From: Spirochaetia bacterium
GTDB lineage: Bacteria > Spirochaetota > Spirochaetia > CAKZLE01
NCBI GenBank assembly: GCA_963677595.1
Contig: OY782041.1
Coordinates: forward strand, 2,176,001 to 2,240,000
Direction of reading: 5' to 3'
Length of the DNA: 64,000 bases
The translations under genes and the position numbers were made by a program. Below, one piece after another: positions 10,371 through 45,291 of this stretch. How positions within the stretch are numbered: position 1 is the first letter of the stretch; the number at the start of each line of letters is the position of its first letter. The notes under the pieces are model-generated. The model made no database searches, was not told the DNA's origin, and saw only the letters and a list, made by a program, of their open reading frames with translations.

Positions 10371-10396
10371 CATGAATTTTGATTTATTTTGTACTA

Positions 10397-22081: not shown

Positions 22082-22151
22082 ATAGAAGAGATTAACAAAT
22101 CTCTAGCTTTATGGATTTTAAAGTACTACATGCTATCGGAGGGGAAGAAAG

Positions 22152-22967: not shown

Positions 22968-22977
22968 GTAAGAATGT

Positions 22978-24873: not shown

Positions 24874-24915
24874 ATTTGCATTTCTTGAGATAAAAAAATT
24901 TTAGGGATTTCTAAA

Positions 24916-27900
24916 ATGGGGAAAAAAGTACTAATAATAAGTTTAATTGCTTGCTTTTTTTTCAATGTAATAAGTTGTGATCTCTTTTCTTTAGAAGAAT
25001 GGTTTGATTTCCCAACTAAAGCCGTTATCACAACGAATGATATCTCTGATATACATATAGGAGAAACTGTTTCTCTTGATGGTAGTACCAGTGAATGTGG
25101 CATGAATGAGACTTTGATTTATACATGGGAAATAGCAGAAAAACCATTAGGATCAATAGCTACTCTTGATCATCCTACATCTAAAACTTCTTCTTTTACT
25201 CCAGATTATGCAGGAACTTATATAATTAGCCTAACCGTAGTAGATGATGATGAAGATAGCAATAGCTGTAACTATTCAATCGATGTTTCCGCTATTATTA
25301 CTACTTCAGCTGGAACAGGAGGGAGTATCACCCCTAGTGGGGCTGTGAGTGTTACACAGGGGAGTGATAAGACCTTTACCATTACACCAGAAACAGGGTA
25401 TGAGATATCTGATGTGTTCGTAGATGGCGAAAGTGTTGGAGCTGTAACGAGTCATACCTTTAGTGATGTAACTGAGAACCATACTATCAGTGCGTCGTTC
25501 TTATTAGTTGAATATGTCATAACAGCATCCGCGGGAACTGGGGGAAGTATCAATCCGAGCGGAGATGTGAGTGTAACTCATGGAAGTGATAAAACGTTTA
25601 CGATTACCTCAGAGACAGGATATGAGGTGTCTGATGTACTTGTAGATGGAAAGAGTGTTGGAGCTGTTACGAGTCATACCTTCGATGATGTAACTGAGAA
25701 CCATACGATAAGTGTAACATTCTCATTAGTTGATTATGTAATTACTGCTTCAGCCGGAACAGGAGGGAGTATCAATCCGAGCGGAGATGTGAGTGTAACG
25801 CATGGGGATGATCAGACATTCACCATTACACCAGAAACAGGGTATGAGATAGCAGATGTGTTCGTAGATGGCGAAAGTGTTGGAGCTGTAACGAGTCATA
25901 CCTTCAATGATGTAACTGAGAACCATACGATAAGTGCAACATTCTCATTGGTAGATTATGTAATTACTGCTTCGGCTGGAACAGGAGGGAGTATCAATCC
26001 GAGCGGAGATGTGAGTGTAACGCATGGGGATGATAAGACATTCACCATTACACCAGAAACAGGATATGAGGTATCTGATGTGCTCGTTGATGAAGTGAGT
26101 GTTGGAGCTGTAACGAGTTATACTTTTTATGATGTAACAGAGAACCATACTATCAGTGTTTCATTCGTTTTAGGTGAATATACAATTACATTTTATAAGA
26201 ATGCGACAGATGCGATAGGAGTAATGCCACCAGAAGATGTTATAAATGGAGAAACAATAGTCTTACCTATTGTTGGATTCAGTAGAGCAGGGTATACCTT
26301 TTCTGGATGGTCTACAAGTTCCGGTGGTGAAGTGGAATTTACTGATCAATCATCATTTACAGTTGGATCCTCGAATGTCACACTATTTGCGATATGGGAA
26401 GGTAATACATATATAATCACATTTGATAAAAATGATGAAAGTGCAATAGGAACTATGCCAGACCAGAATGTAAAAAGTGGTATTGTAGTAAATCTTAATG
26501 CAAATGTGTATGAAAAAGTCGGAAGTATTTTTACTGGTTGGGCAACTAATCCTAGTGGGCCTGTAGTATACGAAGACCAAGCTTCTTTCATGATTGGTAT
26601 TTCAAATGTGACACTATATGCGCAATGGGAAGAAGTGAAGAACTTGCTTCCTACAAATGGCACTACAACAATTGATACTACACCTACTTTCAGTTGGAGT
26701 GAGATTAACTATTCAACTGGATATCATTTTCAGCTAGTTAAAGATGAAGCACTTTTTGATTCTAGTGATTATATCCCTGTAACTTCAAATTCTTATGTCC
26801 CAGAGGAAGTATTAGATAATTTGAGTACATATTATTGGCGGTTACGAGTAGCTAACAATGAAAAACTGGGTAGCTGGACAGAAGCCAATTCTTTCAGTAT
26901 TGATTTTGGTGATGTAAATAATCTTCTACCAGTAAGTGGTTCTGGAACATCCGACACTACTCCTTTATTTAGCTGGGATGAAGTACCAGGAGCTATAAAC
27001 TATGAATTTCAAATATCTGAAAGTGAACCAGATTTAGATACTGCTACTAAAGAAAATTGTGTTTCAAATGAGTACGAACCCTCTAACGCGCTAGAAAACA
27101 CAAAAACGTATTATTGGCGTGTGAGAGCGAGAAATAATGATGGAGTATATGGAGAGTGGAGTGGTAATAACAGTATTTCAATCAATTGGTTGGGAGAAAT
27201 TACTGATAAAGTCCCAGTTGATGGATCTGTAACGATTGATCAGACCCCAAGATTAAGTTGGGATGTAAATGATAGTGCTACCTCATATGAATTACAGTTT
27301 TCTGAAGTTGGATTTGATTTAAATGATTCCGAAATTCGAATCATAGACAATAAGTATTTCTATCTTGAAGATGAATTAATCATTGGTGAAGAATATCAGT
27401 GGCGAGTTAGGGCTAAAGATAGTGGAGGCTCTTATGGTTCTTGGAGCGAAATAAACAAGTTTACTGTAAAATCATCCTTCTCAATTCGAGATACTAGAAC
27501 AAAAGGGAGCATTATATTCTATGACAAGGGATCATATAGTGATGGTTGGAGATATTTAGAAGTCGCACCCTATGGTTGGTATAACGGGGGGAATGATCCA
27601 TTATATGATTGGGGTGTTTGGTCCTATACTGTGAGTCCCTCTGCAACAGCTAGAGGAATCGGATATGGAAGTATAAATACAACTAATATCGTTTTATTTC
27701 ATGATCGCCTTGGAACAGAGGGGTATCTCGGTTATGCAGAAGGATGGGGAAGTTATTATGAAAATCCTTCGGCATATAATACTTGGAGTAATGGGCAGGT
27801 AGCTGCAAAACTTTGTGTAGAGGCTGAGATTGTAGGATATACTGATTGGTTCTTACCTTCAGCAGATGAATTAAAACAAATCTACAATATTCTATATCTC

Positions 27901-28056
27901 TCAGGAATCGGTAACTTTATGGCGAATGGTACACCATATTGGAGTTCAAGTGAATATGATTCAAAAGAAGCAATGAGATTAGGATTTAATCCATATTATT
28001 ACAAAGATCTTTCAAAATCATCTAGTTGTTATATTAGGCCTGTTAGGAGTTTCTAG
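24916..28056 (+). CDS. Repeat-stalk surface lipoprotein 2 (4 x 74-aa repeats, 2 Flg_new-like, 3 FN3-like, lectin-like tip)
   Basis: Lipobox VISC; three TP.FSW...Y.WRVRA...G.WS domains; tip DWFLPSADEL..YWSSSE..IRPVRSF. Confidence 0.85.
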   Translation: MGKKVLIISLIACFFFNVISCDLFSLEEWFDFPTKAVITTNDISDIHIGETVSLDGSTSECGMNETLIYTWEIAEKPLGSIATLDHPTSKTSSFTPDYAGTYIISLTVVDDDEDSNSCNYSIDVSAIITTSAGTGGSITPSGAVSVTQGSDKTFTITPETGYEISDVFVDGESVGAVTSHTFSDVTENHTISASFLLVEYVITASAGTGGSINPSGDVSVTHGSDKTFTITSETGYEVSDVLVDGKSVGAVTSHTFDDVTENHTISVTFSLVDYVITASAGTGGSINPSGDVSVTHGDDQTFTITPETGYEIADVFVDGESVGAVTSHTFNDVTENHTISATFSLVDYVITASAGTGGSINPSGDVSVTHGDDKTFTITPETGYEVSDVLVDEVSVGAVTSYTFYDVTENHTISVSFVLGEYTITFYKNATDAIGVMPPEDVINGETIVLPIVGFSRAGYTFSGWSTSSGGEVEFTDQSSFTVGSSNVTLFAIWEGNTYIITFDKNDESAIGTMPDQNVKSGIVVNLNANVYEKVGSIFTGWATNPSGPVVYEDQASFMIGISNVTLYAQWEEVKNLLPTNGTTTIDTTPTFSWSEINYSTGYHFQLVKDEALFDSSDYIPVTSNSYVPEEVLDNLSTYYWRLRVANNEKLGSWTEANSFSIDFGDVNNLLPVSGSGTSDTTPLFSWDEVPGAINYEFQISESEPDLDTATKENCVSNEYEPSNALENTKTYYWRVRARNNDGVYGEWSGNNSISINWLGEITDKVPVDGSVTIDQTPRLSWDVNDSATSYELQFSEVGFDLNDSEIRIIDNKYFYLEDELIIGEEYQWRVRAKDSGGSYGSWSEINKFTVKSSFSIRDTRTKGSIIFYDKGSYSDGWRYLEVAPYGWYNGGNDPLYDWGVWSYTVSPSATARGIGYGSINTTNIVLFHDRLGTEGYLGYAEGWGSYYENPSAYNTWSNGQVAAKLCVEAEIVGYTDWFLPSADELKQIYNILYLSGIGNFMANGTPYWSSSEYDSKEAMRLGFNPYYYKDLSKSSSCYIRPVRSF

Positions 28057-28130
28057 TAGTAAGATGATTTATGTAGAAAATTTTTGTAATTATAAATATT
28101 TATTAAAGAACATTTATAAGGTTTTGAGTT

Positions 28131-30554
28131 ATGAAAAGAAGTCTGGTACTATTTACTATCTTAGTAGTCATTATAGCATGTCTGATCAGCTGTGATCTAT
28201 TCTCCTTAGAGGATTGGTTCGACTTTGCAACAAAAGCAGTAATCACTTCTAATGATACCTCTGATATACATATAGGAGAAGCTGTTTCTCTTGATGGTAG
28301 CACCAGTGAATGTGGCATGAATGAGACTTTGATTTATACATGGGAAATAGCAGAAAAACCATTAGGATCAATAGCTACTCTTGATCATCCTACATCTAAA
28401 ACTTCTTCTTTTACTCCAGATTATGCAGGAACTTATATAATTAGCCTAACCGTAGTAGATGATGATGAAGATAGCAATAACTGTAACTATTCAATCGATG
28501 TTTCCGCTATTATTACTGCTTCAGCTGGAACAGGAGGGAGTATCACCCCTAGTGGGGCTGTGAGTGTTACACAGGGGAGTGATAAGACATTCACGATTAC
28601 ACCAGAAATAGGTTATGAGATAACAGATATCGTAGTGGATGATAGTAGCATAGGGGCTGTATCTACATACACCTTCTCAGATGTTTCAGAGAACCATACA
28701 ATCAATGCGACATTCTCATTAGTAGATTATGTCATTTCTGCTTCAGCAGGAACTGGAGGAAGTATTAGTCCAAATGGCGATGTAAGTGTAACTTATGGAA
28801 GTGATAAGGCGTTTACGATTACCTCAGAGACAGGATATGAGGTGTTTGATGTACTTGTAGATGGAAAGAGTGTTGGAGCTGTTACGAGTCATACCTTCAA
28901 TGATGTAACTGAGAACCATACGATAAGTGCAACATTCTCATTGGTAGATTATGTAATTACTGCTTCGGCTGGAACAGGAGGGAGTATCAATCCGAGCGGA
29001 GATGTGAGTGTAACGCATGGGGATGATCAGACATTCACCCTTACACCAGAAACAGGATATGAGGTATCTGATGTGCTCGTTGATGAAGTGAGTGTTGGAG
29101 CTGTAACAAGTTATACTTTTTATGATGTAACAGAGAACCATACTATCAGTGCGTCGTTCTTATTAGTTGAATATGTCATAACAGCATCCGCGGGAACTGG
29201 GGGAAGTATCAATCCGAGCGGAGATGTAAGTGTAACTCATGGGGATGATCAGACATTTACGATAACTCCAAATACTGGATATGAGATCTCTGATGTTCTA
29301 GTGGATGGATTGAGTGTAGGTGCAGTGATAAGCTATACGTTCATTGATGTGACAGAGAATCATACGATCAATGCGTCGTTCTCATTAGTTGAATATGTCA
29401 TAACAGTATCAGCAGGGACAGGGGGCAGTATTACTCCAAATGGCGATGTAAGTGTAACACATGGAAGTAATAAGACATTTACGATTACATCAGAGACAGG
29501 ATATGAGGTGTCTGATGTGCTAATAGATGGATCTAGTGTTGGAGCTGTAACGAGTCATACCTTCTATGATGTAACTGAGAACCATACGATCAGTGCGTTG
29601 TTCACATTAATTGAATATGTCATAACAGCATCAGCGGGGACTGGAGGGAATATCAGCCCAAGTGGCGATGTAAGTATAACTCATGGGAGTGATAAGACGT
29701 ACACCATCACACCAAATACAGGATATGAGATATCTGATGTACTCGTAGATGGATCTAGTGTTGGAGCTGTAACGAGTCATACTTTCAATGATGTGACTGA
29801 GAACCATACGATCAGTGTTACTTTTTCTCAGAGTGAATTTACCATTACATTTATTAAAAATGCTGCTGATGCAACTGGTACTATGTCTTCTGAAACAGTA
29901 AAAAGTGGAGATGCAATTTCTCTTCCTACCGTTGGATACACCAGAGTAGGGTATACCTTCTCAGGTTGGGCAACGAGTTCTGAAGGGATCGTAGTATATG
30001 CTAATCAGGCGTCGTTTACAATGGATTCTTCGGATATGACGTTATATGCAATTTGGACACGTAAAGAGTATGCTATTGGGACAGTAGGTCCTGGAGGCGG
30101 TTATGTTTTTTATGATAAAGGGTCTGATGTTGACGGTTGGCGGTATATTGAAGCGGCGCCATATGGTTGGTTTGATGGAGGAGATGATCCGCTGATGATT
30201 TGGGGTGGGTATGGAATTAGTATTGGTACAGCAGAATCGGTGGGTACTGGTCGGAATAATACTGAATTAATTGTAAATGAATTAGGAAATAATTATTATG
30301 CTGCAAAAATATGTGAATCTGCAATAATTAATGATCTATCAGATTGGTTTTTACCTTCGATTGAAGAAGTTAATTTAATGTATGATATTCTGTTATTAAA
30401 CAATCTCGGGAATCTCTTAAATGAGTATGATTATTGGAGTTCTTCAGATTCAGATAGTATTTCTCATGCTTTATCTAAATTGTTTAGTAATGGTGGCGTT
30501 ATGGGGGAATTAAAAAATACTCATAATTGGGTAAGACCTGTTAGATATTTCTAG
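28131..30554 (+). CDS. Repeat-stalk surface lipoprotein 3 (6 x 74-aa repeats, 1 Flg_new-like, lectin-like tip)
   Basis: Lipobox LISC; tip GPGGGYVFYDKG..DWFLPS..YWSSS..VRPVRYF. Confidence 0.85.
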   Translation: MKRSLVLFTILVVIIACLISCDLFSLEDWFDFATKAVITSNDTSDIHIGEAVSLDGSTSECGMNETLIYTWEIAEKPLGSIATLDHPTSKTSSFTPDYAGTYIISLTVVDDDEDSNNCNYSIDVSAIITASAGTGGSITPSGAVSVTQGSDKTFTITPEIGYEITDIVVDDSSIGAVSTYTFSDVSENHTINATFSLVDYVISASAGTGGSISPNGDVSVTYGSDKAFTITSETGYEVFDVLVDGKSVGAVTSHTFNDVTENHTISATFSLVDYVITASAGTGGSINPSGDVSVTHGDDQTFTLTPETGYEVSDVLVDEVSVGAVTSYTFYDVTENHTISASFLLVEYVITASAGTGGSINPSGDVSVTHGDDQTFTITPNTGYEISDVLVDGLSVGAVISYTFIDVTENHTINASFSLVEYVITVSAGTGGSITPNGDVSVTHGSNKTFTITSETGYEVSDVLIDGSSVGAVTSHTFYDVTENHTISALFTLIEYVITASAGTGGNISPSGDVSITHGSDKTYTITPNTGYEISDVLVDGSSVGAVTSHTFNDVTENHTISVTFSQSEFTITFIKNAADATGTMSSETVKSGDAISLPTVGYTRVGYTFSGWATSSEGIVVYANQASFTMDSSDMTLYAIWTRKEYAIGTVGPGGGYVFYDKGSDVDGWRYIEAAPYGWFDGGDDPLMIWGGYGISIGTAESVGTGRNNTELIVNELGNNYYAAKICESAIINDLSDWFLPSIEEVNLMYDILLLNNLGNLLNEYDYWSSSDSDSISHALSKLFSNGGVMGELKNTHNWVRPVRYF

Positions 30555-30665
30555 GGTTTAGAAAATGTTTTTTGTATACCTCATATTGGTACCTAATACA
30601 GTCAAAAAAACATTAGATATTTCTGTGGGATATTTTGTTTGTAGGGCGGAAACTTAGGGTATAAA

Positions 30666-33119
30666 ATGATGAACAAAAAAATTGTAATAATATGTACCAT
30701 CATTCTTATTCTTGTAGGAATAGCCAGTTGTGATCTGTTTTCATTAAACGAATGGTTTGATTTTCCTACAGAAGCAGTTATAACAATCGATGATTCAACA
30801 GTCCCAATTATTGGAGATTCTATTACCCTAGATGGTAGTTCGAGCAAATGTGGTATGAATGAATCATTAATCTATAATTGGGAGGTAATACAAAGACCGT
30901 TAGGTTCTGTTGCCACACTAGAACAAACTACTGCACAGCAATCCTCGTTAATTCCTGATTATGCAGGAACATATATAATTAGATTAACCGTAGTAGATGA
31001 TGATGAAGATAGCAATAGCTGTAACTATTCAATCGATGTTTCCGCTATTATTACTGCTACAGCTGGAACAGGAGGGAGTATCACCCCCAGTGGTGATGTG
31101 AGTGCTACACAGGGGAGTGATAAAACATTTACGATTACACCAGAAACAGGGTATGAGATAGCAGATGTGTTCGTAGATGGCGAAAGTGTTGGAGCTGTTA
31201 CGAGTCATACCTTCGATGATGTAACTGAGAACCATACGATAAGTGCAACATTCTCATTGGTAGATTATGTAATTACTGCTTCAGCCGGAACAGGAGGGAG
31301 TATCAATCCGAGCGGAGATGTGAGTGTAACGCATGGGGATGATAAGACATTCACCATTACACCAGAAACAGGGTATGAGATAGCAGATATCATAGTGGAT
31401 GATAGCGGCATAGGTGTTGTATCTACTTACACCTTCTCAGAAGTTTCAGAAAACCATACAATCAGTGCAACATTTGTGCAGAGTGAATTCACGATTACAT
31501 TTGTTAAGAATTCAACTGATGCAACTGGTACTATGTCTCCAGAATCAGTAACAAGTGGTGATACCATCTCTCTCCCTGCTGTTGGATATACGAGATCAGG
31601 GTATACCTTCTCTGGATGGGCAACGAGTTCTGTAGGAACCGTAGTATATACTGATCAGGCGTCATATACGATGGGATCATCAGATGTAACGCTATATGCC
31701 GTTTGGCAGAGTACCGTTCAATATATGGTAAGTTTCGATAAGAATGATAGTGCAGCAACAGGAAGCATGTTAAGCCAATGGATTACGCAAGGGCAGACTG
31801 AGAATCTTGATCCCAACGGGTATAGTAAGGAAGGTTGGTCATTCGTAGGTTGGTCTATGACAAGTAGTGGGAGTATTGCATATGTTGATCAAGCCCCATT
31901 TACCATGGGAAGTAATCATGTACCTTTGTATGCTTTATGGAAAATAAATGATTATACTATAACCTTTGATAAAAATGACGAGTTAGCTGAAGGAGAGATG
32001 GAAGATCAAGAAATTATATATGGTGAGACAGAAAATCTTAATGCAAATGTTTTAAGTAGAAAAGGATATAGTTTTTCAGGGTGGTCAACCACACCTGATG
32101 GGGGAATTGAGTATACAGACCAATCTGAGTTTACCATGGGATCAGCAGATTTAACACTCTATGCACAATGGGAAGCAAATGATTATATTATTTCATTTAA
32201 TCCTGAAGGGGGTTCTTTAACAACCTCAAGTACAAAGATAGTTATCTATGATAATAATTATGGAGATTTACCAGAGACTTCGAAAATAGGGTATAGTTTT
32301 TTAGGTTGGTGGTCAGAACCCCTTGGCGAAGGGTATGAAATAACAAATTCAACTTTAGTAAAGATTGAAGCGAATCATGAATTCTATGCATTATGGCAAG
32401 CAAATACCTTTCTGGTAAGTTTTAATCCTGATAAAGGCAGTAATACAAATCCTATAAAAATTTCGGTAGCATTTGATTCTCTTTATGGTCCTTTACCAAT
32501 TACTACTAGGGACGGATATGATTTTGGTGGTTGGTGGACAGGTGTAAATGGATCTGGTCTGGAAATTACAGAAGATTCAATAGTGTTAATAACAGAGGAC
32601 ACAACACTATATGCAAATTGGAGTGTTGTTGGGAATTTAGGTCCTGCAGGTGGGGTTGTTTTTTACGATAAAGGGGTTTATATAGATGGTTGGAGATATC
32701 TAGAATGTGCAACTTTGGGGTGGTATAAAGGAGGTAGTGACCCCTCAGTTGTATGGGGGAAGTTTGGGGCATATGTACAAAATACACAAACTGCAATTGG
32801 GTATGGTGATTATAATACACAACGGATAATCAGTACAAATCAATTAAACTTGAGTATTTTTGCAGCAAAAATATGTGATGACTATTCTGTTATTAATGAT
32901 GCTATTATCTATAATGATTGGTTTCTTCCTTCTAAGGATGAATTGGAATTGATGTACATCAATAGAGCGATTATTGGGAGTTTCTCTGCAGAAGCATATT
33001 GGAGTTCTTCAGAATTTGACTGTAATAGTGCTTGGATACAGGTATGGGATAGAAATTATCAATACTATAATTATAAAGATAAATTAAACTATGGGATAAG
33101 ACCAATAAGAGCTTACTAA
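30666..33119 (+). CDS. Repeat-stalk surface lipoprotein 4 (2 x 74-aa repeats, 5 Flg_new-like, lectin-like tip)
   Basis: Lipobox IASC; five G(Y/W).F.GW...LYA.W repeats; tip DWFLPSKDEL..YWSSSE..IRPIRAY. Confidence 0.85.
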   Translation: MMNKKIVIICTIILILVGIASCDLFSLNEWFDFPTEAVITIDDSTVPIIGDSITLDGSSSKCGMNESLIYNWEVIQRPLGSVATLEQTTAQQSSLIPDYAGTYIIRLTVVDDDEDSNSCNYSIDVSAIITATAGTGGSITPSGDVSATQGSDKTFTITPETGYEIADVFVDGESVGAVTSHTFDDVTENHTISATFSLVDYVITASAGTGGSINPSGDVSVTHGDDKTFTITPETGYEIADIIVDDSGIGVVSTYTFSEVSENHTISATFVQSEFTITFVKNSTDATGTMSPESVTSGDTISLPAVGYTRSGYTFSGWATSSVGTVVYTDQASYTMGSSDVTLYAVWQSTVQYMVSFDKNDSAATGSMLSQWITQGQTENLDPNGYSKEGWSFVGWSMTSSGSIAYVDQAPFTMGSNHVPLYALWKINDYTITFDKNDELAEGEMEDQEIIYGETENLNANVLSRKGYSFSGWSTTPDGGIEYTDQSEFTMGSADLTLYAQWEANDYIISFNPEGGSLTTSSTKIVIYDNNYGDLPETSKIGYSFLGWWSEPLGEGYEITNSTLVKIEANHEFYALWQANTFLVSFNPDKGSNTNPIKISVAFDSLYGPLPITTRDGYDFGGWWTGVNGSGLEITEDSIVLITEDTTLYANWSVVGNLGPAGGVVFYDKGVYIDGWRYLECATLGWYKGGSDPSVVWGKFGAYVQNTQTAIGYGDYNTQRIISTNQLNLSIFAAKICDDYSVINDAIIYNDWFLPSKDELELMYINRAIIGSFSAEAYWSSSEFDCNSAWIQVWDRNYQYYNYKDKLNYGIRPIRAY

Positions 33120-33147
33120 AAGTGTTATCAAAATGAAGAACAAAATC

Positions 33148-33197
33148 TGTATCAATTACGTCCATGAAACACATCTTAAGTAGACAAAATTGATACA
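33148..33197. repeat. Symmetric att-like site (15-bp inverted arms, central CA)
   Basis: TGTATCAATTACGTC-N9-CA-N9-GACAAAATTGATACA; the right arm matches the sequence after the tRNA. Confidence 0.75.
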
Positions 33198-33203
33198 ATT
33201 CAG

Positions 33204-33238
33204 AAAAGCCGGTTTCTCTTAGTGAAGATCGGTTTTTT
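33204..33238 (+). terminator. Rho-independent terminator, homologous to the one after the tRNA
   Basis: AAAAGCCGGTTT...AGATCGGTTTTTT. Confidence 0.65.
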
Positions 33239-33355
33239 CTATATCTTTTCCGTTTGTTCTTTCCCTATCCCCCAGATTTCCTCACTGAACCAAAAAAAAG
33301 AAAGAGGCATTTTGCAGGTTACATATTAGTATTGTTCTAGGAATCTGCATATGGG

Positions 33356-33468
33356 TGAATACGTATACAAGATTGTGGTAATTTGGTTGTATTTTTAGAA
33401 AAATACAAAAAATAAGTTTGACAATCATGGTATTCAATGGTAATGTTCAGTTAATGAATACGTATACA
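33356..33468 (+). promoter_or_regulatory. Promoter flanked by two LacI-type operators
   Basis: TTGACA (33418) - 17 nt - TAATGT (33441); TGAATACGTATACA at 33356 and 33455. Confidence 0.8.
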
Positions 33469-33512
33469 TTACAAATTGCAGTTATGTATTCTGATTTCAA
33501 AAGGAGAGAGTT

Positions 33513-34121
33513 GTGATAAAAAACATATTCAAATGGTTGGATATTAACTTTGAACCTGTTTGTATGGCAGTCTTGTTCTATGCAATCACGTTACTGGTTA
33601 CCCTACAGGTTATCCTGCGATTTGTATTCTCAACCGGGTTTTCTTGGGGCGAAGAGGTTGCAAGGTTCCTGTTTGTCTGGTTGATGTATTTCAGTATTGC
33701 CTATGCCACACGCAATCAACGGCATATCAGGGTGGCGTTCCTGGTCCAGAGATTCGGGGAAAAGGGTCATAAGATCTTTCTGATTCTGGGAGACATCATC
33801 TTTTTGATTTTCTCAGTGTTTATTTTCCTTTCTGCCATCAAAGTCTGTCAGTCAGTCTTCAAGTACCAGGATATGGCAGTAACCATCAATGTGTCGCTGA
33901 ATATTGTGTACGCTGCAGGGGTAGTTGGATTCTTCCTGATCCTTATCAGGCTTGTCCAGTCTATCATCTGGAAGATCAGGCACTTCAGTGATTCCATGGA
34001 TGTGTTCGAGAACTATGCAGGTGTCTATTCCGGTGCTGACAATGTCTTCTTCTTCCAGAAAACGAAGTTGAAGGAAGCCGCTTCGACAGAACCTGCTGAA
34101 TTACAGAGGGAGGCTGAGTAA
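33513..34121 (+). CDS. dctQ: TRAP transporter small permease
   Basis: QVILRFVF...WGEEVARFLFVW...HIRV; 4 TM segments. Confidence 0.92.
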   Translation: MIKNIFKWLDINFEPVCMAVLFYAITLLVTLQVILRFVFSTGFSWGEEVARFLFVWLMYFSIAYATRNQRHIRVAFLVQRFGEKGHKIFLILGDIIFLIFSVFIFLSAIKVCQSVFKYQDMAVTINVSLNIVYAAGVVGFFLILIRLVQSIIWKIRHFSDSMDVFENYAGVYSGADNVFFFQKTKLKEAASTEPAELQREAE

Positions 34122-35407
34122 TGGTCGGATTATTATTTGGTTCTTTGATACTGATGCTGCTGCTTTCGGTACCAATCGGTATCTCATTGGGTGCAGCTTC
34201 CATGCTCACGATTTTTACTACAGATCCTATCAGTCTTGAGTCCTTCACACAGACAATGATTCAGGGACTGAACTCATTCCCGCTCATGGCAGTACCGCTA
34301 TTTACTTTTGCCGGTGATATCATGGGTAAGGGAGGAATCTCCAAGAGACTATTGAATGTGACGGGCATCATGTTCGGTCGATTCAAGGGGGGGCTCGGCG
34401 TCGTTTCTATCGTTGCCTGTCTGTTCTTTGCTGCGATCTCAGGTACCGGTTCTGCAACAGTAGCGGCTATCGGACTGATCATGATCCCGAATATGGTGGA
34501 TAAGGGATATGACAGGACCTTCTCAGGAGCTTTGATTGCAACAGCTGGAACCGTAGGAGTTATCATCCCGCCAAGTATCTGTATGGTCATTTATGCTGTT
34601 GCTTCCGGAGTATCAGTTACCGGTATGTTCATGGCCGGGATCGGTCCTGGTATTCTTGTAGGAATTGCTTTGGCAGTCTATACCGTGATCTACTCCACAA
34701 GAAAAGGATATGAAGGGGATCCGAAAAGGTACTCAGTCAAGGAAGTAGTTACGATCTTTGTTGATGCTATCCCGGCACTGCTGGTTCCTGTTATCGTCCT
34801 GGGAGGTATCTACGGTGGAGTTTTCACTCCGACAGAGGCTGCTGCCGTTGCCGCAGTATATGGAATCATTGTAAGCGTGTTCGTCTATAAGGAAGTCAAG
34901 ATCAAGGAATTACCCCAGATCGGATTCAATTCAGCGCTCCTGTGTGCAGCAGTGCTTGTTATCATCGGTATTTCAGCAGGGTTCGGGCGAATTCTTACGA
35001 TTACCGGGATCCCTGTGACCATAGCGAACTTCATCTTGGACATTACTCAGAGCAAGTTCCTGATCCTTCTTTTCATCAATATCATGTTGCTGATCGTAGG
35101 GACATTCATGGAGACCAATGCATCTATCATCATCCTGGTCCCGATCTTGCTGCCGGTAGTGACAGCACTTGGGGTCAATCCTATCCACTTCGGTGTGATC
35201 ATGGTACTCAACCTTGCGATCGGATTCGTCACACCTCCGTTAGGGGCGAACCTCTTCATGGCATGCCAGATCGGCCGTATCAAATTCGATGATATTGCCA
35301 GATCTATCGTACCCTGGATCCTTGTCATGATCGTGGTCCTGATGTTGGTGACCTATATCCCGGTAATCACATTGGGATTACCCAAGTTGATGGGTATCCC
35401 GGTCTGA
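34121..35407 (+). CDS. dctM: TRAP transporter large permease
   Basis: FAAISGTGSATVAAIG, IIPPSI, GVFTPTEAAAV, TPPLGANLF. Confidence 0.95.
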   Translation: MVGLLFGSLILMLLLSVPIGISLGAASMLTIFTTDPISLESFTQTMIQGLNSFPLMAVPLFTFAGDIMGKGGISKRLLNVTGIMFGRFKGGLGVVSIVACLFFAAISGTGSATVAAIGLIMIPNMVDKGYDRTFSGALIATAGTVGVIIPPSICMVIYAVASGVSVTGMFMAGIGPGILVGIALAVYTVIYSTRKGYEGDPKRYSVKEVVTIFVDAIPALLVPVIVLGGIYGGVFTPTEAAAVAAVYGIIVSVFVYKEVKIKELPQIGFNSALLCAAVLVIIGISAGFGRILTITGIPVTIANFILDITQSKFLILLFINIMLLIVGTFMETNASIIILVPILLPVVTALGVNPIHFGVIMVLNLAIGFVTPPLGANLFMACQIGRIKFDDIARSIVPWILVMIVVLMLVTYIPVITLGLPKLMGIPV

Positions 35408-35447
35408 CCGGGAACCGCTGATTATAATAGTGTTAATCGTCAGAACT

Positions 35448-35461
35448 TGTATACGTATACA
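35448..35461. promoter_or_regulatory. LacI-type operator
   Basis: Perfect palindrome TGTATACGTATACA upstream of dctP. Confidence 0.75.
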
Positions 35462-35510
35462 TTTTCTGAAAGGACAGTATGTCCTTAGATAAAAAATGGA
35501 GGAGAGAATT

Positions 35511-36527
35511 ATGAAGAAAATGCTAGGAATCATGTTAGTACTGCTCATGGTAGCCATGACAGGGCTGGTCGCAAACGGACAGCAGGAAGGTGCAGCAGAG
35601 AAGATCGTGATCAAGTTAGGACATGATAATAATGTACAGACACCTGGACATGCAGCATTCGTCAAATTTAAAGAGATCGTAGAGACAGAATCAGAAGGTC
35701 GGATAGAAGTTAAGATCTTCCCCGGTGGACAGCTTGGATCCGTACAGGATATGTTCGAGCAAACTCGACGAGGTGACCTTGACATGAGTGTTGGGGCAAC
35801 CACACTGTTCACACAGACCATTCCTGAATTTGCTGTATGGGATTCATTCTATATGTTTGATGATGCAGCGCATGCTCACAGAGTCCTTGACGGCAAGGCT
35901 GGACAGGAGTTGATGAAACCCCTTGATAAGATGAATCTTGTTGGACTGGGGTACATGGAGATCGGATTCAGGAATTTCTCGAACTCTAAACGACCGATCG
36001 TGAATCCTGCGGATGTGAAGGGATTGAAGATTCGAGGTTACAGCCCGATGCAGATTGCAGCCTGGGAATCTGTAGGATGTTCTCTTACCAACCTCTCATG
36101 GTCGGAAGTGTTCACATCACTTCAGCAAAATCTGATCGACGGTCAGGAATGTGCCACAACAAGCTTCTACAGCGCTAAATTCTATGAAGCACAGAAATAC
36201 TGGTCTCTCACACGCCATGTATACACCAACTGGCTGTGGTATGCAAATAAAGATTTCATGAATGGTCTTTCTGAAGCTGATCGGGCACTAGTTGAGAGCG
36301 CTGCGAAGAGAGCAATCGATGAGGATAGAAAACTAATGGCTGCTGCTGAGAAAGAGACCCTTGATAAGCTCCCAGGACTTGGAATCGAAGTGCAGGAAGT
36401 ACCGCTTGAGACGAGGCTTGCAATGGGTAAAACAATGAATGCGGCAGTAGGTGATCAGATCATCGCTAAGTGCGGACAGGATATCTATGACATGGTCATG
36501 GAAGAGATCAAGAAAGAGCGACAGTAA
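35511..36527 (+). CDS. dctP: TRAP substrate-binding protein
   Basis: Signal peptide; IFPGGQLG, GFRNF, KGLKIR (carboxylate-binding Arg), SLQQNLIDGQE. Confidence 0.93.
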   Translation: MKKMLGIMLVLLMVAMTGLVANGQQEGAAEKIVIKLGHDNNVQTPGHAAFVKFKEIVETESEGRIEVKIFPGGQLGSVQDMFEQTRRGDLDMSVGATTLFTQTIPEFAVWDSFYMFDDAAHAHRVLDGKAGQELMKPLDKMNLVGLGYMEIGFRNFSNSKRPIVNPADVKGLKIRGYSPMQIAAWESVGCSLTNLSWSEVFTSLQQNLIDGQECATTSFYSAKFYEAQKYWSLTRHVYTNWLWYANKDFMNGLSEADRALVESAAKRAIDEDRKLMAAAEKETLDKLPGLGIEVQEVPLETRLAMGKTMNAAVGDQIIAKCGQDIYDMVMEEIKKERQ

Positions 36528-36542
36528 CGTAAAGTATGTATG

Positions 36543-36577
36543 CCCGTATCCTTTCAAGATGACAGAAGGGATACGGG
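36543..36577. terminator. Hairpin after dctP
   Basis: CCCGTATCCTTTC...GAAGGGATACGGG; no clear U-tract. Confidence 0.5.
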
Positions 36578-36723
36578 AAGAGAAATGGTCAGCTGAGCCT
36601 GGAATAGATGAAATTACATAGGGCTTACGGGTACAGGCTCAGTTAGTTTGAGTTAAAGGCATGAATTTTTCCTCCTACTATATAGCCGTTTTAGTGAAGA
36701 TAGTGTAGCATAGAGGTGATTTT

Positions 36724-37785
36724 TTGATGGAAGTAAAGAGAAAGATGGTCAAAAGGAAAACCAGACAGCGTAGGGTCTCTTCAGTTGATGTTGCTAAAGA
36801 GGCTGGTGTTTCACAGGCAACAGTATCCCGTGTCTTCAACAACAAGAAGGGCACGAATGTATCGGAGGAAACTGTTGAGAAGATCATGGCTGCAGCGAAA
36901 AAACTCAATTACCGTCCATCTGTTATTGCCAGGAGTCTGCAGGAGAACTCAACCAATATCATCGGGATCATAAATCGAAGATTCGACAGCTCCTTCCATA
37001 TGAAGTCGTTGGATCTGTTCTCGCAGGAGCTTCAGAAATTAGGATATTCAACATTGCTGTTGAATCTCCCTTCAGACGGGAGCATGGATTCAGCCCTTCA
37101 TAAGGCACTAGAATACCAGGTGGATGGGATTATCCTGACTTCTGTCAAGCTCTCCTCCCATCTGGTTGAGGAATGTATTCACTACGATACGCCAGTTGTG
37201 CAGTTCAACCGATATTCAATCTATCAGGATGTTGATTCCGTATGTCTTGATAACTATAAGGCTAGTGCAGAAGTTGGCAATTATCTTGTCGAGACAGGAC
37301 ATACAAAGATCGCGTATGTTTCAGGTAATGCTGAATCCTCCACAAGTATCGATCGTAAGAAAGGGTTGGAACACAGTCTTCAGCGTGTCGACCTTCCTAT
37401 ATATTGTGAGCATATTGGAAGATTGACCCATGAATCGGGCTGTGACGCAGCTGATGTATTCTTTAAGGATAAAGACAAAGCTGATTGGCCAGATGCAGTC
37501 TTCTGTATCACGGATGATGTGGCTACTGGGTTTATTGACCAGGCCCGAAGCGTATATGGTGTGAAGATACCAGAAGATGTATCTATTGTCGGGTTCGATG
37601 ATGCTCCGATTTCCAGGTGGCCGCAATATGACCTGACAACTGTCTCACAGCCGATTGAGACGATGGTGCTTGATGCCCTGGAGATCCTTCTGGATCTGAT
37701 CCAGTTTGAGAAATCCGGAGTTATTAAGAAGATGATACCTGGTACTCTCGTAAAGAGATCTACTGTCAAAGAGAGAAATAAATAA
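36724..37785 (+). CDS. LacI family transcriptional regulator
   Basis: DVAKEAGVSQATVSRV, YRPSVIARSL, IPEDVSIVGFDD, LTTVSQP. Confidence 0.95.
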   Translation: MMEVKRKMVKRKTRQRRVSSVDVAKEAGVSQATVSRVFNNKKGTNVSEETVEKIMAAAKKLNYRPSVIARSLQENSTNIIGIINRRFDSSFHMKSLDLFSQELQKLGYSTLLLNLPSDGSMDSALHKALEYQVDGIILTSVKLSSHLVEECIHYDTPVVQFNRYSIYQDVDSVCLDNYKASAEVGNYLVETGHTKIAYVSGNAESSTSIDRKKGLEHSLQRVDLPIYCEHIGRLTHESGCDAADVFFKDKDKADWPDAVFCITDDVATGFIDQARSVYGVKIPEDVSIVGFDDAPISRWPQYDLTTVSQPIETMVLDALEILLDLIQFEKSGVIKKMIPGTLVKRSTVKERNK

Positions 37786-37835
37786 ATTCATGATGTGATT
37801 ATGGAACGTGGGAAAGAGAGTTTTACTAAATACGA

Positions 37836-37849
37836 TGTATACGTATACA
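37836..37849. promoter_or_regulatory. LacI-type operator
   Basis: TGTATACGTATACA upstream of the transaldolase operon. Confidence 0.75.
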
Positions 37850-37881
37850 TTGTGTTGTTTGATGATTACAAGGAGAAGTAA

Positions 37882-38928
37882 ATGAAAAAGAGCTATTTTC
37901 ACCGAGTGACAGAACAGAGCCCGACACGGTTCTGGATCAATAACGTGACTCGAGAAGAGGCGGATGTGGCCCTTGAGGCAGGTGCAGTCGGCTGTACCCA
38001 GAACCCGTCATATGTCTACAAGATGCTCGTGCATGAAAAAGAGCAGGCATATGCCTACGGGAAGCTGGATGCGATCCTGGCAGAGGAATCAGACGATGAG
38101 ATGGTACAGGAGATTCTCCAGCAGCAGTTGGTAGGTGAGGTGGCCAAACACTTCCTCCCGCTGTTTGAGGCATCGAAGGGCCGGTACGGGTATGTTAGCG
38201 TACAGGGGAACCCCTTCAAGGAGGATGTCGGGAACATCATCCGTAATGCCCGGATGAACCGGGAAGCCGGGCCGAACATCATGGCGAAAGTCCCGGTGAC
38301 CGAGGATGGACTGAAAGCGATCGAGGTCCTGATCGCAGAAGGGACCCCTATCAACGCCACCGAGGTGATGGGTGTGAGACAGGCGATGGATGTCTGTGAT
38401 GTCTATGACAAGGCAGCGTCAACGATGGAGAACCCGCCGGCAGTCTTCTTCTCACATATCACGGGGATCTATGATGAGTACTTGCAGGGGTATGTGAAGG
38501 AGAAGGGCATCGAGATCAGTGAGGATGTGATGTGGCAGGCCGGGATGGTCATCGCGAAGAAGGTGTACAAACTGACGAAGGAGCGGAACAGTGGGGTCGG
38601 CTTCATCGGCGGCGGGGCCAGGGGGCTGCAGCACTTCACCGAGATGGTGGGAGCTGACTGCAATATCACGATCAACTGGAAAGGGACCGCGGACAAGCTG
38701 ATCGAGCAGGACGGCCCGGTGGTTGACCGGTTCCATACCCCGGTGGCTGAAAGCGTTCTCGATGAACTGCTTGAGAAGGTAGAGGATTTCGCGAGAGGGT
38801 GGAAGATCAACGGACTGAGCCCGGAAGAGTATGAGGAGTTCGGACCGGTCGTGCTGTTCAGGAACTCCTTCGAGAAGAACTGGAGCCAGGCTCGGGAGCT
38901 GATCAGGAAAAGAAGATCTGAGAAATAA
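37882..38928 (+). CDS. Divergent transaldolase family protein
   Basis: GCTQNPSY, GYVSVQG, NIMAKVPVTEDGL (Schiff-base Lys), INAT; WINN replaces the usual D motif. Confidence 0.85.
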   Translation: MKKSYFHRVTEQSPTRFWINNVTREEADVALEAGAVGCTQNPSYVYKMLVHEKEQAYAYGKLDAILAEESDDEMVQEILQQQLVGEVAKHFLPLFEASKGRYGYVSVQGNPFKEDVGNIIRNARMNREAGPNIMAKVPVTEDGLKAIEVLIAEGTPINATEVMGVRQAMDVCDVYDKAASTMENPPAVFFSHITGIYDEYLQGYVKEKGIEISEDVMWQAGMVIAKKVYKLTKERNSGVGFIGGGARGLQHFTEMVGADCNITINWKGTADKLIEQDGPVVDRFHTPVAESVLDELLEKVEDFARGWKINGLSPEEYEEFGPVVLFRNSFEKNWSQARELIRKRRSEK

Positions 38929-38983
38929 TATGTCACCAATGACATGAAGAAACATAAACACATAGATTTTTTAGGAGAGAAAT

Positions 38984-39895
38984 ATGAAGAAACAGAATAC
39001 ATTCAAGATGAACAAAAGAGACTCAGTCTGGTTCCAGGAGAACAGTGCCCATGTGAATGCAGCATATGCGAAAGAAGTATGTGATGTGGCGATCCTTCCA
39101 ATCGGTGCAATCGAGCAGCATGGAGCGCACTGTCCATGCGGAATGGACTCCTACAATGCAATTGGTATTGCTGAGAAGGTGGCAGAGGCAACAGGTGCTA
39201 TGTGTCTTCCCAGTCCGATGTATGGTTCACATCCACACCACCATTGGGGAATGCCAGGGACTATCCCCCTTCAGTTTGAGACACATATTGCCCTGCTGAT
39301 GGATATCATCAGGGGGGCTGCAGTATGTGGTTACAACAAGTTCATCATCATTTCGGCTCACGGTCAGGTATCATCAACGATCGTGGCAGTACATAAACTT
39401 GGGATCGAAGGACTCTTCACCATCTCATCAACATGGTATGACTTCCTGCGGGACAACAAGACTGTATTGAAGGATTATATGTGGCATGCGGATGAAGCTG
39501 AAACATCAGTCGGACTGTATCTCTACCCGGATCTGATCCAGATGGACCTTGCAGAAGCAGGTGGCGGGAAAGGACTGGTCGATTCATCATGGAAGATCGC
39601 TCCCGGTGAGGCGGCACTTCCTGGAATGCTCTACCACTTCGAGGGTACGTTTGCGCTCCCTGAAAAAGATGATCTTGAAAACGGTGTAATCGGTGACCCG
39701 ACAAATGCGACAAGGGAGAAGGGTGAGGAACTGATCGAAGGTGTCGTCTCTTACTATTCAAGACTTGTTGAGGAGATAAAGAGTAAGTATGCGGTTGGTA
39801 TCAACCCGCTCGGTTTCAGGAATCCGAATGGATACAACACAACTGCTGACATCGTGTATGACAAGGATCATGATGAGAAAGGGCAGCTGAAATAA
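38984..39895 (+). CDS. Creatininase family hydrolase
   Basis: PIGAIEQHGAHCPCGMD, HH..PGT, AHG, HADEAETS, GVIGDPTNATREKG. Confidence 0.9.
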   Translation: MKKQNTFKMNKRDSVWFQENSAHVNAAYAKEVCDVAILPIGAIEQHGAHCPCGMDSYNAIGIAEKVAEATGAMCLPSPMYGSHPHHHWGMPGTIPLQFETHIALLMDIIRGAAVCGYNKFIIISAHGQVSSTIVAVHKLGIEGLFTISSTWYDFLRDNKTVLKDYMWHADEAETSVGLYLYPDLIQMDLAEAGGGKGLVDSSWKIAPGEAALPGMLYHFEGTFALPEKDDLENGVIGDPTNATREKGEELIEGVVSYYSRLVEEIKSKYAVGINPLGFRNPNGYNTTADIVYDKDHDEKGQLK

Positions 39896-39989
39896 GTGCA
39901 GGTAATGACTGATTCTCTGCTGGGCAGGAAGGATATTCTTGCTCGGTAGAGACAGCTGTCGGGTTGATTCCGATGAGGAAGATGAATCA

Positions 39990-40865
39990 ATGAATCACAC
40001 TGTCTTAATTGATAAGATCATAACAGATAAACTACCGTTCTTTGCTAAACATCCTAAAATTGAAAAACTTGTCGGTGGGTTCCGGTTTGTAGAAGGGCCA
40101 GTCTGGATTGCTGAAGAGAAGAGACTTATCTTCAGTGATATACCGGGGAATGCCATCTACAGCTGGCAAGAGGAAGCAGGTCTCTCGATGCTGAAACCGA
40201 ACAGTTATCTTGCGAACGGGAATACCCTGGACCCCTACGGGAATCTGATCAGCTGTGAACATGGCACCAGCAGGATCACTGCCACGGACCTGAAGACCGG
40301 TCGGTATAGTATCCTTGCTGATTCTTTTGACGGTAAGTCGTTGAACAGTCCGAATGATGTTGTAGCCAGGTCAGACGGGAGTATGTACTTTACTGATCCG
40401 ATCCCTGGTCGACAGCCGAGAGTTGGTATTCCAAGGACTCCGGAATTACCCTTTTGCGGCATCTATCGATACGATGACAAGACTGCGTACCTCTATCTGC
40501 TTGATGACACCTTCACCACACCGAACGGGCTCTGCTTCTCGGATGATGAGAAGAGACTGTATGTGAATGACTCGGCAGACGGAAGCATCTCTGTATTCGA
40601 CGTCGATGAGAAGGGAATGCTGAAAAACAGGATAAGGTGGTCCTGTGTGCAAGGTGACGGGCCGGGATGCGCTGATGGGATGAAGTTCCATCCGAGCGGG
40701 CATATCTTCTGTACAGGACCTGGAGGGATATATCTGCTGAATCCTGGGGGGAATATTGTCTGCAGGTTGAAGATGCCGGAAGTAGCAGCGAATCTGACGT
40801 TCAATGAGGATTACTCAGCAATATACGTTACGGCAACCTCTTCAATCTACCGGATCAGACTGTAG
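39990..40865 (+). CDS. SMP-30/gluconolactonase family protein
   Basis: EGPVW, FSDIP, LNSPNDVV, PNGLCFS, ADGM. Confidence 0.92.
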   Translation: MNHTVLIDKIITDKLPFFAKHPKIEKLVGGFRFVEGPVWIAEEKRLIFSDIPGNAIYSWQEEAGLSMLKPNSYLANGNTLDPYGNLISCEHGTSRITATDLKTGRYSILADSFDGKSLNSPNDVVARSDGSMYFTDPIPGRQPRVGIPRTPELPFCGIYRYDDKTAYLYLLDDTFTTPNGLCFSDDEKRLYVNDSADGSISVFDVDEKGMLKNRIRWSCVQGDGPGCADGMKFHPSGHIFCTGPGGIYLLNPGGNIVCRLKMPEVAANLTFNEDYSAIYVTATSSIYRIRL

Positions 40866-40887
40866 CACATAAGATAAGGAGAACGTT

Positions 40888-41955
40888 ATGACAGATAACG
40901 AAAGAAAAATCAAACCGGAAGAACTGGAAGGATATCTTTCAGAACTCTTTGCAGCAGCAGGGATGAGCAGAGCTGATGCAGCATTCAGCGCATCCTGTAT
41001 GGTCAGGACGAACCTCTGGGGAGTAGATTCTCACGGTGTGCTCAGGATGCCGATCTACCTGCAGAGGGTGCTCGGCAGGGTGATCAACCCTGAACCGGAA
41101 ATTACTGAGGTATCAGAGCTGCCTGGTCCGATGGCCCTGCTCGACGGTGATGCCGGCATGGGGTATGTCGTAGGGAAAGCAGGTATGGGTCTTGCCATCG
41201 AGAAGGCGAAAGAGTACGGGATCGGGATGGTCCTGGTACGGAACAGCAACCATTTCGGTGCAGCGGCACTGTATGCACGACAGGCAGTGGAAGCAGGGAT
41301 GATCGGTATCTCGACGACCAATGTGATCCCGAATATCGGGATGAAGGGGAATGCGAAGCCCTCAACAGGAAACAACCCGATTGCTATGGCAGCGCCATTG
41401 GAAGAAGCCTTCCCGTTCGTGCTTGATATCTCACTGTCTGCCGTAGCCGGGGGGAAACTCCTGCTGGCGGCGAAGAAGGGAGAGAAGATCCCGAAGGACT
41501 GGGCTGTCACGAAAGAGGGGAAGGAGACTGATGACCCGACACTCGGGTTTGCGGGATTCCTGCTGCCGGTAGGGTTGCATAAGGGGTTCGGACTCTCCCT
41601 GTTCGTTGACCTGATTACCGGAGTCCTGAGCGGCGGACCGTATCTGCATGGACTCAAGAGCATGTACAAGCATCCGGATGATCCATCTCTGACCTCTCAT
41701 CTGTTCATTGCCATCAACCCTGATGTTTTCCTCACAAAAGAGGAGTATGCGGAACGGGTGAAGGACTGGGCCTCCCAGGTGCATGCGACCGAGATGATTG
41801 ATCCGTCGATGAAGCAGGTGATACCGGGGGAGATCGAATATCGGAAGGAACAGGAACGAAAGGAATCAGGGATACCGGTACCGGCTGAACTGATCAGGGA
41901 CCTCGCAGCATACAGCGAACGGCTCAATGTGAAGATGCCGGCTGTACTGCAGTAG
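40888..41955 (+). CDS. Ldh_2 family oxidoreductase (ComC/YiaK/AllD-like)
   Basis: GVDSHGV, NSNHFGAA, GNNPIAMAAP, HKGFGL, IPGE. Confidence 0.92.
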   Translation: MTDNERKIKPEELEGYLSELFAAAGMSRADAAFSASCMVRTNLWGVDSHGVLRMPIYLQRVLGRVINPEPEITEVSELPGPMALLDGDAGMGYVVGKAGMGLAIEKAKEYGIGMVLVRNSNHFGAAALYARQAVEAGMIGISTTNVIPNIGMKGNAKPSTGNNPIAMAAPLEEAFPFVLDISLSAVAGGKLLLAAKKGEKIPKDWAVTKEGKETDDPTLGFAGFLLPVGLHKGFGLSLFVDLITGVLSGGPYLHGLKSMYKHPDDPSLTSHLFIAINPDVFLTKEEYAERVKDWASQVHATEMIDPSMKQVIPGEIEYRKEQERKESGIPVPAELIRDLAAYSERLNVKMPAVLQ

Positions 41956-41976
41956 ATTGAGAGAAGGAAGAGAGTT

Positions 41977-42810
41977 ATGAAACTGAAGAACAAAGTAGCG
42001 GTAATCACCGGCGGTACGAAAGGTATCGGGTTAGGCATCGCTATCGAGTTCGCGAAGGAGGGAGCGTTAGTCGTGATCGGCGGGCGCAACCCCCAGACCG
42101 GGGAAGAGGGACTGCAGGAGCTCCTCGCGCTCGGAGGCGAAGCGATGTACGTTCCCTGTGATGTCGGGGACTTGACCAGCCTGCAGTATATCATAGACAG
42201 GACCGTGGAGCGGTTCGGGAAGATCGACATTTACGTCTCCAATGCCGGGATCAACGATTCACAGAAGACACGGTATCTGGATATCACGCCGGAACAGTAC
42301 GACCGGATCATGGACGTCAACCTCAGGGGGATGTTCTTCGGGGACCAGTATGCGGCGCGTGAGATGGTGAAGCAGGGATGCGGCGGAGCGATCATCAACA
42401 TGTCATCGGTCAATGCCTATCTGGCACTGAATTCGCAGATGGTCTACACGACGAGCAAGGGCGGCGTGCAGCAGCTGACGAAGGTTCAGGCGGTGGACCT
42501 GGCTCCCTACGGGATCAAGGTGAACGCGATGGCACCGGGACCGATCGAGACCGATCTCATGAGACGGGTAGGGTCGGACAAGCAGCTGATGAACACGATT
42601 CTCTCGAGGACCCCGTTGGGGCGTATCGGGACGCCGAAAGAGTGCGGGAGACTGGCGGTCTTCCTCGCCTGCGAGGACTCGGACTTCATCATGGGGCAGT
42701 CGATCTACAATGACGGCGGCCGGGGCTTCCAGGCATTCCCTGTTCCCGGATACAAGACCGTGACTGATGAAGAGTATGAACAGCTTCAGAATATGAAGGA
42801 GAAGAACTGA
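41977..42810 (+). CDS. SDR family oxidoreductase
   Basis: TGGTKGIG, SNAG, YTTSK, PLGRIGTP. Confidence 0.95.
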   Translation: MKLKNKVAVITGGTKGIGLGIAIEFAKEGALVVIGGRNPQTGEEGLQELLALGGEAMYVPCDVGDLTSLQYIIDRTVERFGKIDIYVSNAGINDSQKTRYLDITPEQYDRIMDVNLRGMFFGDQYAAREMVKQGCGGAIINMSSVNAYLALNSQMVYTTSKGGVQQLTKVQAVDLAPYGIKVNAMAPGPIETDLMRRVGSDKQLMNTILSRTPLGRIGTPKECGRLAVFLACEDSDFIMGQSIYNDGGRGFQAFPVPGYKTVTDEEYEQLQNMKEKN

Positions 42811-44228: not shown

Positions 44229-44252
44229 GCGATATACGAAGAGGATAATAAG

Positions 44253-45032: not shown

Positions 45033-45067
45033 GTAAAGAAACTAATTACCTAGAGGTTTGGTGCGAT

Positions 45068-45259: not shown

Positions 45260-45291
45260 AAGGGATTGCAGGAAAATTCTTGATGGTAATC

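Follow-up and report, generated by a model that had tools for sequence, protein, structure and literature searches.

A probable large-serine-recombinase island at the terminal CA of a spirochaete tRNA-Leu(CAG) gene, with signs of stacking behind the tRNA

The window analysed here, i.e., the whole stretch of 64,000 nucleotides from a Spirochaetia bacterium (genome G000), carries behind a tRNA-Leu(CAG) gene three copies of a short arm motif, one of them being part of the two-armed site studied in this work. The comparison set comprised five other genomes of the same order (G001-G005), G001 belonging to the same genus, and the reference protein was P0001, a full-length large serine recombinase (LSR) of 523 aa with resolvase, recombinase and zinc-ribbon domains. 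The features of the array are the following (z values refer to folding):

3322-3405, forward strand: target tRNA-Leu(CAG) gene (tRNA call), ending in CA at 3404-3405, CCA not encoded; it follows the same beta-glucosidase in G001.
3406-3429, forward strand: right half-site at the tRNA-proximal island end (putative P' of attL); the identical 24 nt stand behind tRNA-Leu(TAA) in the same genome.
3436-3463, forward strand: terminator-like hairpin after the half-site 3406-3429 (z -4.1).
3678-19408, no strand assigned: pile-up of insertion sequences (IS) and fragments, about 16 kb in all, in which one ORF (16269-17510) encodes a tyrosine recombinase.
19409-19696, forward strand: C-terminal 95 codons of an LSR, cut by the IS end at 19408; 76 of 95 residues identical (80%) to P0001.
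19985-33119, forward strand: low-GC cargo of putative surface proteins or lipoproteins, four of them with 222-bp repeat units (ORF annotation).
33148-33171, forward strand: left half-site (putative P), distal island end; near-identical halves occur in G001, G002 and G003.
33172-33173, forward strand: central CA, the putative crossover dinucleotide duplicated from the tRNA end; four of five full sites of relatives are CA-centred, the fifth having a 1-bp deletion.
33174-33197, forward strand: right half-site, putatively the previous tRNA trailer; 20/24 identical to 3406-3429 and 21/24 to the tRNA-Leu(TAA) trailer of G004.
33203-33238, forward strand: terminator-like hairpin, homologous to those behind tRNA-Leu in relatives (z -3.5).
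33513-45032, forward strand: older layer with genes for a TRAP transporter, a LacI regulator and sugar-acid catabolism, in which no recombinase was found.
45292-45341, forward strand: displaced, degenerate 3' half of tRNA-Leu(CAG), starting at the anticodon (40/50 identical).
45342-45365, forward strand: third right half-site, without terminator; 20 bp of it are deleted in a related strain.
46544-46601, forward strand: candidate degenerate left half-site (centre GA; 20 bits) plus hairpin (z -4.2), a tentative outer end of the array.

The site at 33148-33197 spans 50 bases, arranged as 24+2+24 bp around the CA at 33172-33173, and its inverted 15-mers (33148-33162 and 33183-33197), each 9 bp away from that CA, match at 13 of 15 positions. 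This symmetry had been noticed in an earlier inspection of the letters alone (hereafter, the sequence-only reading), whose coordinates proved right throughout, as did its observation that the terminal CA of the tRNA is followed by nine bases, the same arm (3415-3429) and a homologous hairpin. The left arm pairs at 14 of 15 positions with the arm at 3415 and at 13 of 15 with its right neighbour, which is a small difference. Judging by the distance to the T-loop, the CA at 3404-3405 would correspond to the last acceptor-stem base plus the discriminator. The sequences upstream of the two CA dinucleotides (3404-3405 and 33172-33173) are unrelated, and the duplication at the two element ends is limited to the 2-bp core. 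Regarding the hairpins at 3436-3463 and 33203-33238, their assignment rests on folding and on the T-run, because a simple terminator scan called neither, and no hairpin follows the third right half-site (45342-45365; folding z +1.5). Mimicry of the arm by the T-loop was not found for tRNA-Leu(CAG). In an LSR site of this kind, attB would be expected to carry the arm motif moved inward by about 5 bp; the tRNA half and the arm motif share at most three of eight positions in any of the registers compared (0-6).

Taken alone, the dyad is weak evidence, since the genome holds 175 comparable arrangements (15-bp arms, 20 bp apart) when up to 3 mismatches are allowed and 26 when up to 2 are, with 3 lying within the window; it is its repetition that exceeds chance. 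With a half-site matrix trained only on the relatives, and the reversed genome as control, right-half matches of at least 20 bits were found five times, versus once in the control, and all five lie in two tRNA-Leu arrays: three in the window, one behind tRNA-Leu(TAA) and one 10.4 kb beyond. The site at 33148 is, in turn, the best left-half match of the genome (37 bits, versus none reaching 16 bits in the control). A motif scattered over the genome as a regulator site, the outcome that the sequence-only reading had named as contrary to its proposal, is thus not what is found. A regulator operator serving the TRAP/sugar cluster or the tRNA-Leu genes would account for the palindrome and for its position 315 bp upstream of the TRAP operon. 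Nevertheless, the arms are 20 bp apart, a terminator stands between the dyad and that operon, the right halves are confined to tRNA-Leu arrays and, in the relatives, the same full site precedes unrelated genes, all of which leaves this explanation with next to no weight. Elsewhere in the window, at 52441-52523, there is a 27-bp inverted repeat (93%) that is likely an operator, flanked by genes that we take to be TetR-like and a MoaD-like/aldehyde oxidoreductase operon.

The stretch delimited by the two CA dinucleotides (3406-33173) amounts to 29.8 kb and contains no phage genes among its annotated ORFs. Its IS pile (3678-19408) consists of nested and truncated copies, including a 507-bp perfect inverted duplication (9864-10370 and 11724-12230) of a transposase start. 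The LSR remnant points away from tRNA-Leu(CAG) and lies 13.4 kb from the distal arm, and its N-terminal part was not found in 3401-19420. From there to the distal end (19409-33173) the GC content is 37.8%. InlB-B/Listeria-Bacteroides repeats were found in both repeat-unit proteins scanned, and the four paralogous surface proteins of 22978-33119 differ in the number of 222-bp units and share swapped blocks of up to 99% identity over 300 bp, which suggests a modular shuffling of these proteins. As its relatives do, the element probably carried a recombinase pair originally. In its present form the island is, to judge from its gene content, dead, because IS insertions have removed all but the last 95 LSR codons, and any further movement would depend on a recombinase provided in trans. 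A second LSR pair of the genome (48% identical to P0001) was considered as the cognate enzyme and rejected, since it has no family half-site. That pair, together with an IS and a gene for a 1526-aa lipoprotein, is bracketed by a 204-bp direct repeat (G000:C1:2879815-2880019 and 2891646-2891850), which takes in the first part of an ssb-like gene as well as a TT-centred, att-like dyad.

In the same order, the arm and terminator are present behind tRNA-Leu(CAG) in G001 and absent in G002-G005, whereas behind tRNA-Leu(TAA) they are found in G003 and G004 and not in G002 and G005; the latter gene was not found in G001. Two-armed full sites with nearly the same left half exist in G001 (two), G002 (two) and G003 (one). 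In G001, the 97 kb that follow tRNA-Leu(CAG) contain a right half, a full site in inverted orientation (at 125342), a further right half and a second full site (at 175007), as well as LSR pieces with 81%, 59% and 73% identity to P0001, all within 100 kb. Judged by its layout, this array is stacking at the same CA. One of its right halves lies about 30 bp past an LSR stop codon and has no arm or tRNA to its left, and the second-type LSRs of G001 are all truncated. Its cargo presumably includes defence-like and sugar genes, as named from ORF starts. The inverted full site (G001:C34:125342-125392, L129), with its 1-bp central deletion, is possibly a mis-oriented recombination product. Moreover, in G001 (C34:157337-160078) and in G002 (C208, L287), the 5' part of the LSR gene has given way to the same integrase-like ORF of 454 aa. 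No intact cognate LSR pair within a closed element was seen in the family genomes compared, and the intact pair of L013 (75% identical) has no family half-site within 21.5 kb. Outside the family, a phylum-wide search gave right-half matches at one mismatch in 11 of 400 genomes, none behind a called tRNA, and left-half matches in none of the 400; three viral left-half matches, which lack a right arm, were treated as chance.

Are the arm and the terminator, then, native to the tRNA-Leu genes? If they were an ancestral trailer of both, i.e., a true B' resembling P', the site at 33148 would be a plain attR left by a single insertion. Such a trailer would be in line with the presence of the arm behind three of the five tRNA-Leu(TAA) genes found and two of the six tRNA-Leu(CAG) genes, with the right arm that follows each of the six intact left arms of the family, and with the displaced tRNA halves of G000 and G003, which carry the arm too. 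It has to face, however, 24-nt trailers that do not differ at all between the two isoacceptor genes, the lack of the arm behind four of six tRNA-Leu(CAG) genes and the several copies per array, and we regard it as unlikely. The elements themselves probably bring the arm and terminator, since four of the five relatives lack them behind tRNA-Leu(CAG).

The third copy points to a possible second kind of event. The sequence-only reading had placed it behind the CA at 45340-45341, which is correct, but had missed that this CA closes a displaced 50-bp tRNA half. Displaced tRNA 3' halves are the kind of mark that tyrosine integrases leave, and the one preceding the third copy suggests a second event, of the tyrosine type; similar displaced halves exist in other family members. 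In view of the long tRNA duplication at the third copy, both recombinase types have probably used tRNA-Leu(CAG); no integrase was found in the layer concerned (33174-45341). A tyrosine integrase could even be held responsible for the island itself, with the dyad as an arm-type or accessory site, given the tRNA duplication at 45292-45341, its counterparts in the family and the tyrosine recombinase ORF at 16269-17510. Yet no tRNA sequence precedes the CA at 33172, that ORF sits among IS debris, and motif and spacing match LSR elements. Such an integrase fits the 33174-45341 layer only and is largely refuted for 33148, which makes it very improbable as the author of the island. The candidate left half at 46544 is the second-best left match in the genome, and G003 has a weaker version of it behind the same gene. 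The other array of this genome, behind tRNA-Leu(TAA) (L001:900-18474; G000 4043900-4061474, minus strand), has a right half at the tRNA and no recombinase, another right half with a strong hairpin 10.4 kb on and, 7 kb further, a possible degenerate left half followed by CA; its cargo includes a HigBA-like pair and what we take to be a glycyl-radical-enzyme-like operon.

With these alternatives weighed, we consider the site at 33148-33197, with a probability of about 0.86, to be the distal junction of an LSR island (3406-33173) that went into the last two bases, CA, of tRNA-Leu(CAG), behind which an earlier insertion had by then left its arm and terminator. The circular form of the element would have an attP composed of the left half (33148-33171), CA and the right half (3406-3429). 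A crossover at CA would duplicate 2 bp only and would place the arm and terminator of the element behind the tRNA, so that the tRNA end plus arm would again be a target and older layers would be pushed downstream. Three of the half-sites are alike and the fourth would be the gene end, as in SCC elements, and the zinc-ribbon domain of the LSR would be expected to recognise the outer TGTATCAA motif. The crossover at the terminal CA, as proposed by the sequence-only reading, gains support from the LSR remnant inside the island and from the end motif and geometry of Phi1207.3 (see below), and the restoration of arm and terminator with tandem accretion, proposed there too, from observations that include the stacked array of G001 at the same tRNA. 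Boundaries at other positions in relatives, which that reading had contemplated as contrary evidence, did not appear, the relatives' junction lying at the same CA. Its predicted empty site (the tRNA CA joined directly to 33174) was not seen in the relatives, and among the loose ends listed for three contig sets (X1 and X2 from one sample, X3 probably from the source), there was no joint at 3405 or 33172, nor was an excised circle seen. X1 and X2 cover 33.3-47.9 kb and hardly 28.0-32.6 kb, which fits a boundary near 33172; as a matter of missing cover, this was not taken as support. Against the proposed junction speak, in addition, the low resemblance between the tRNA half and the arm, the right half of G001 that follows an LSR stop codon, and the failure to find an intact cognate LSR pair in a closed element of the family.

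A link to LSR elements comes from Phi1207.3, whose orf57 is 51% identical to P0001. The outer 10 bp at the ends of its record match the window halves at 9 of 10 positions (left) and at 10 of 10 (all three right halves), and its outer motif stands at the same 24-bp distance, around a split GA. According to the accessible part of its description, this phage integrates at a GA dinucleotide, which is duplicated (2 bp), by means of a tandem recombinase pair (PMC4260502). In the available part of a treatment of serine integrase sites, the zinc-domain (ZD) motif of attP is located at positions 16-24 (PMC3783163), and the outer arm motif fits that position within about two bases. The site has the geometry described there for LSR attachment sites, i.e., about 50 bp with inverted arms around a dinucleotide and a distal zinc-domain motif; of an LSR gene inside the element, just the remnant of 95 codons is left. 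Of 80 metagenome loci with P0001 relatives, many of them on contigs that end early, only 12 have an arm within 700 bp downstream, versus 6 for the reversed motif, a low yield that counts against the proposed junction. The junctions of these relatives include a tRNA 3' end (L028) and two-armed sites (L034, L084). Furthermore, in L022-L024 the arm lies 24 bp from a junction into a frame that is presumably Mg-chelatase-like, to judge from its NPCPCG motif.

The same arrangement seems to reach well beyond the spirochaetes. A scan of GTDB for a T-loop followed by CA, 14 bases and the arm led to an estimate of about 2000 stretches, and the 120 matches listed stand behind many tRNA types and tmRNA, mostly in Clostridia by record title. 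That 108 of these 120 have a length of 48 was not counted as evidence by itself, since the tRNA fixes that spacing. In viral contigs, where spacers of 4-26 were allowed between CA and arm, 14 is found in 52 of 120 loci. Within the class of G406 (Clostridia-class), 47 of 401 genomes have a match (about 11%), with the arm after the CCA of many tRNA types; by hand count, and G406 included, the spacer is 14 in 37 of 53 matches, versus a single match for the reversed pattern. A downstream LSR pointing at the tRNA accompanies 23 of the 28 unique viral spacer-14 loci, all five spacer-13 loci and none of the 24 others with at least 2 kb downstream. Among GTDB loci, it does so in 7 of 52, one other LSR points away and 44 loci have none, many of the LSR-less loci being short cassettes that end in a left arm and CA. 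The CA occupies the expected place in 8 of 37 exact downstream arms (p about 0.002 versus 1/16) and in none of nine upstream ones. One of these loci (L232) has a two-armed junction between two stacked cassettes, the counterpart of 33148; this, as well as the ordinary terminator that follows the distal left arm and CA of the Clostridia-type cassettes, also tells against a native trailer. In many Clostridial loci (L179, L189, L216 and L230, among others), the arm appears by eye to be the loop of the terminator-like hairpin of the tRNA, arm and terminator forming one element.

Regarding the enzymes, 34 integrases were extracted, and 15 of the 17 pairs with at least 90% identity lie at different 3' ends, e.g., tRNA-Leu(GAG) and tRNA-Pro(CGG) (97%) or tRNA-Ala and tmRNA (91%), although these pairs are not independent and several of the 3' ends are tRNA fragments without a call. 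A quick tree sets the lineage of P0001 apart from the LSRs of Clostridial tRNA ends. Because of this, and because the LSR gene of the window points away from the tRNA, the system of the window would be a sister version whose only sites seen are two tRNA-Leu genes, and we do not extend an isotype-blind targeting to its own enzyme. At somewhat better than even odds, we see in these data a widespread and apparently unpublished branch of paired serine integrases that use generic tRNA and tmRNA 3' ends, with crossover at the terminal CA, a terminator of their own, a renewed target and stacked cassettes, one enzyme serving many tRNA types, and with the lineage of the window as a version retuned to a tRNA-Leu devoid of CCA, its crossover lying 3 bp nearer the T-loop.

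In the literature searched, with subscription papers mostly outside and sources covered in part, no paper was found on serine integration at the terminal CA of tRNAs or on its isotype-blind use. The available main text of a large LSR survey (bioRxiv 10.1101/2021.11.05.467528) does not contain the word "tRNA", and the accessible parts of PMC9927172, PMC10383233, PMC4288039 and PMC12884075 hold nothing on serine integration at tRNA ends. If true, the reuse of the tRNA end would put to the test the rule by which attL is no target for serine integrases. Islands in tRNA genes are usually found through a tyrosine integrase and a long tRNA duplication. Where just 2 bp are duplicated, this signature is missing, so that annotation likely undercounts these islands as well as their cassettes devoid of a recombinase, and the arm motif, with the stretches estimated in GTDB, offers a simple way to find them. 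An integrase that did use many tRNA ends without damage to gene or terminator would make a candidate tool for repeated insertion in anaerobes that are hard to engineer.

How does this site compare with known systems? The anticodon-loop type of tyrosine-integrase tRNA islands, reportedly described by Williams in 2002, fits the displaced tRNA half at 45292-45341 and not 33148, where there is no tRNA duplication. Phi1207.3 and Phi10394.4 (orf56-orf57) share with the family the outer motif, the 24-bp arms, a 2-bp crossover and, in the relatives, the tandem LSR pair. Unlike the island, they are phages that use a GA in comEC instead of a tRNA end, and the available part of their description mentions neither terminator replacement nor stacking (PMC4260502). 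The Dehalococcoides ssrA islands (DsiB/DsiA) are also serine-recombinase islands stacked behind a stable-RNA gene, many of them without integration module, but, as far as the accessible text goes, they duplicate about 20 bp of ssrA and their dsiB overlaps attL (PMC3146451), whereas here only CA is duplicated, the target is tRNA-Leu and the LSR gene ends at 19696, pointing away from the tRNA. SCC/SCCmec composites (CcrAB/CcrC) are similar in their workings: in the parts of the sources available, they have a central dinucleotide, three similar half-sites with the fourth in the 3' end of the target gene (PMC13739063), and tandem composites with the oldest layer outermost and recombinase-less layers (PMC13739063; ECC, PMC6222049). 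According to the portion of PMC3783163 available, attL does not serve canonical serine integrases as a target, and the proposed reuse of the tRNA end plus arm would depart from such strict directionality, matching SCC in this respect. Nonetheless, SCC elements use the rlmH 3' end rather than tRNA-Leu and a different motif, and P0001 falls far short of the CcrA, CcrB and CcrC cut-offs, its 150 bits standing versus 900 for CcrB and the other two scores, 87 and 74 bits, versus 900 and 700. The site thus works like SCC composites and uses an attachment site of the Phi1207.3 type, yet it is neither an SCC nor a Dehalococcoides ssrA island.
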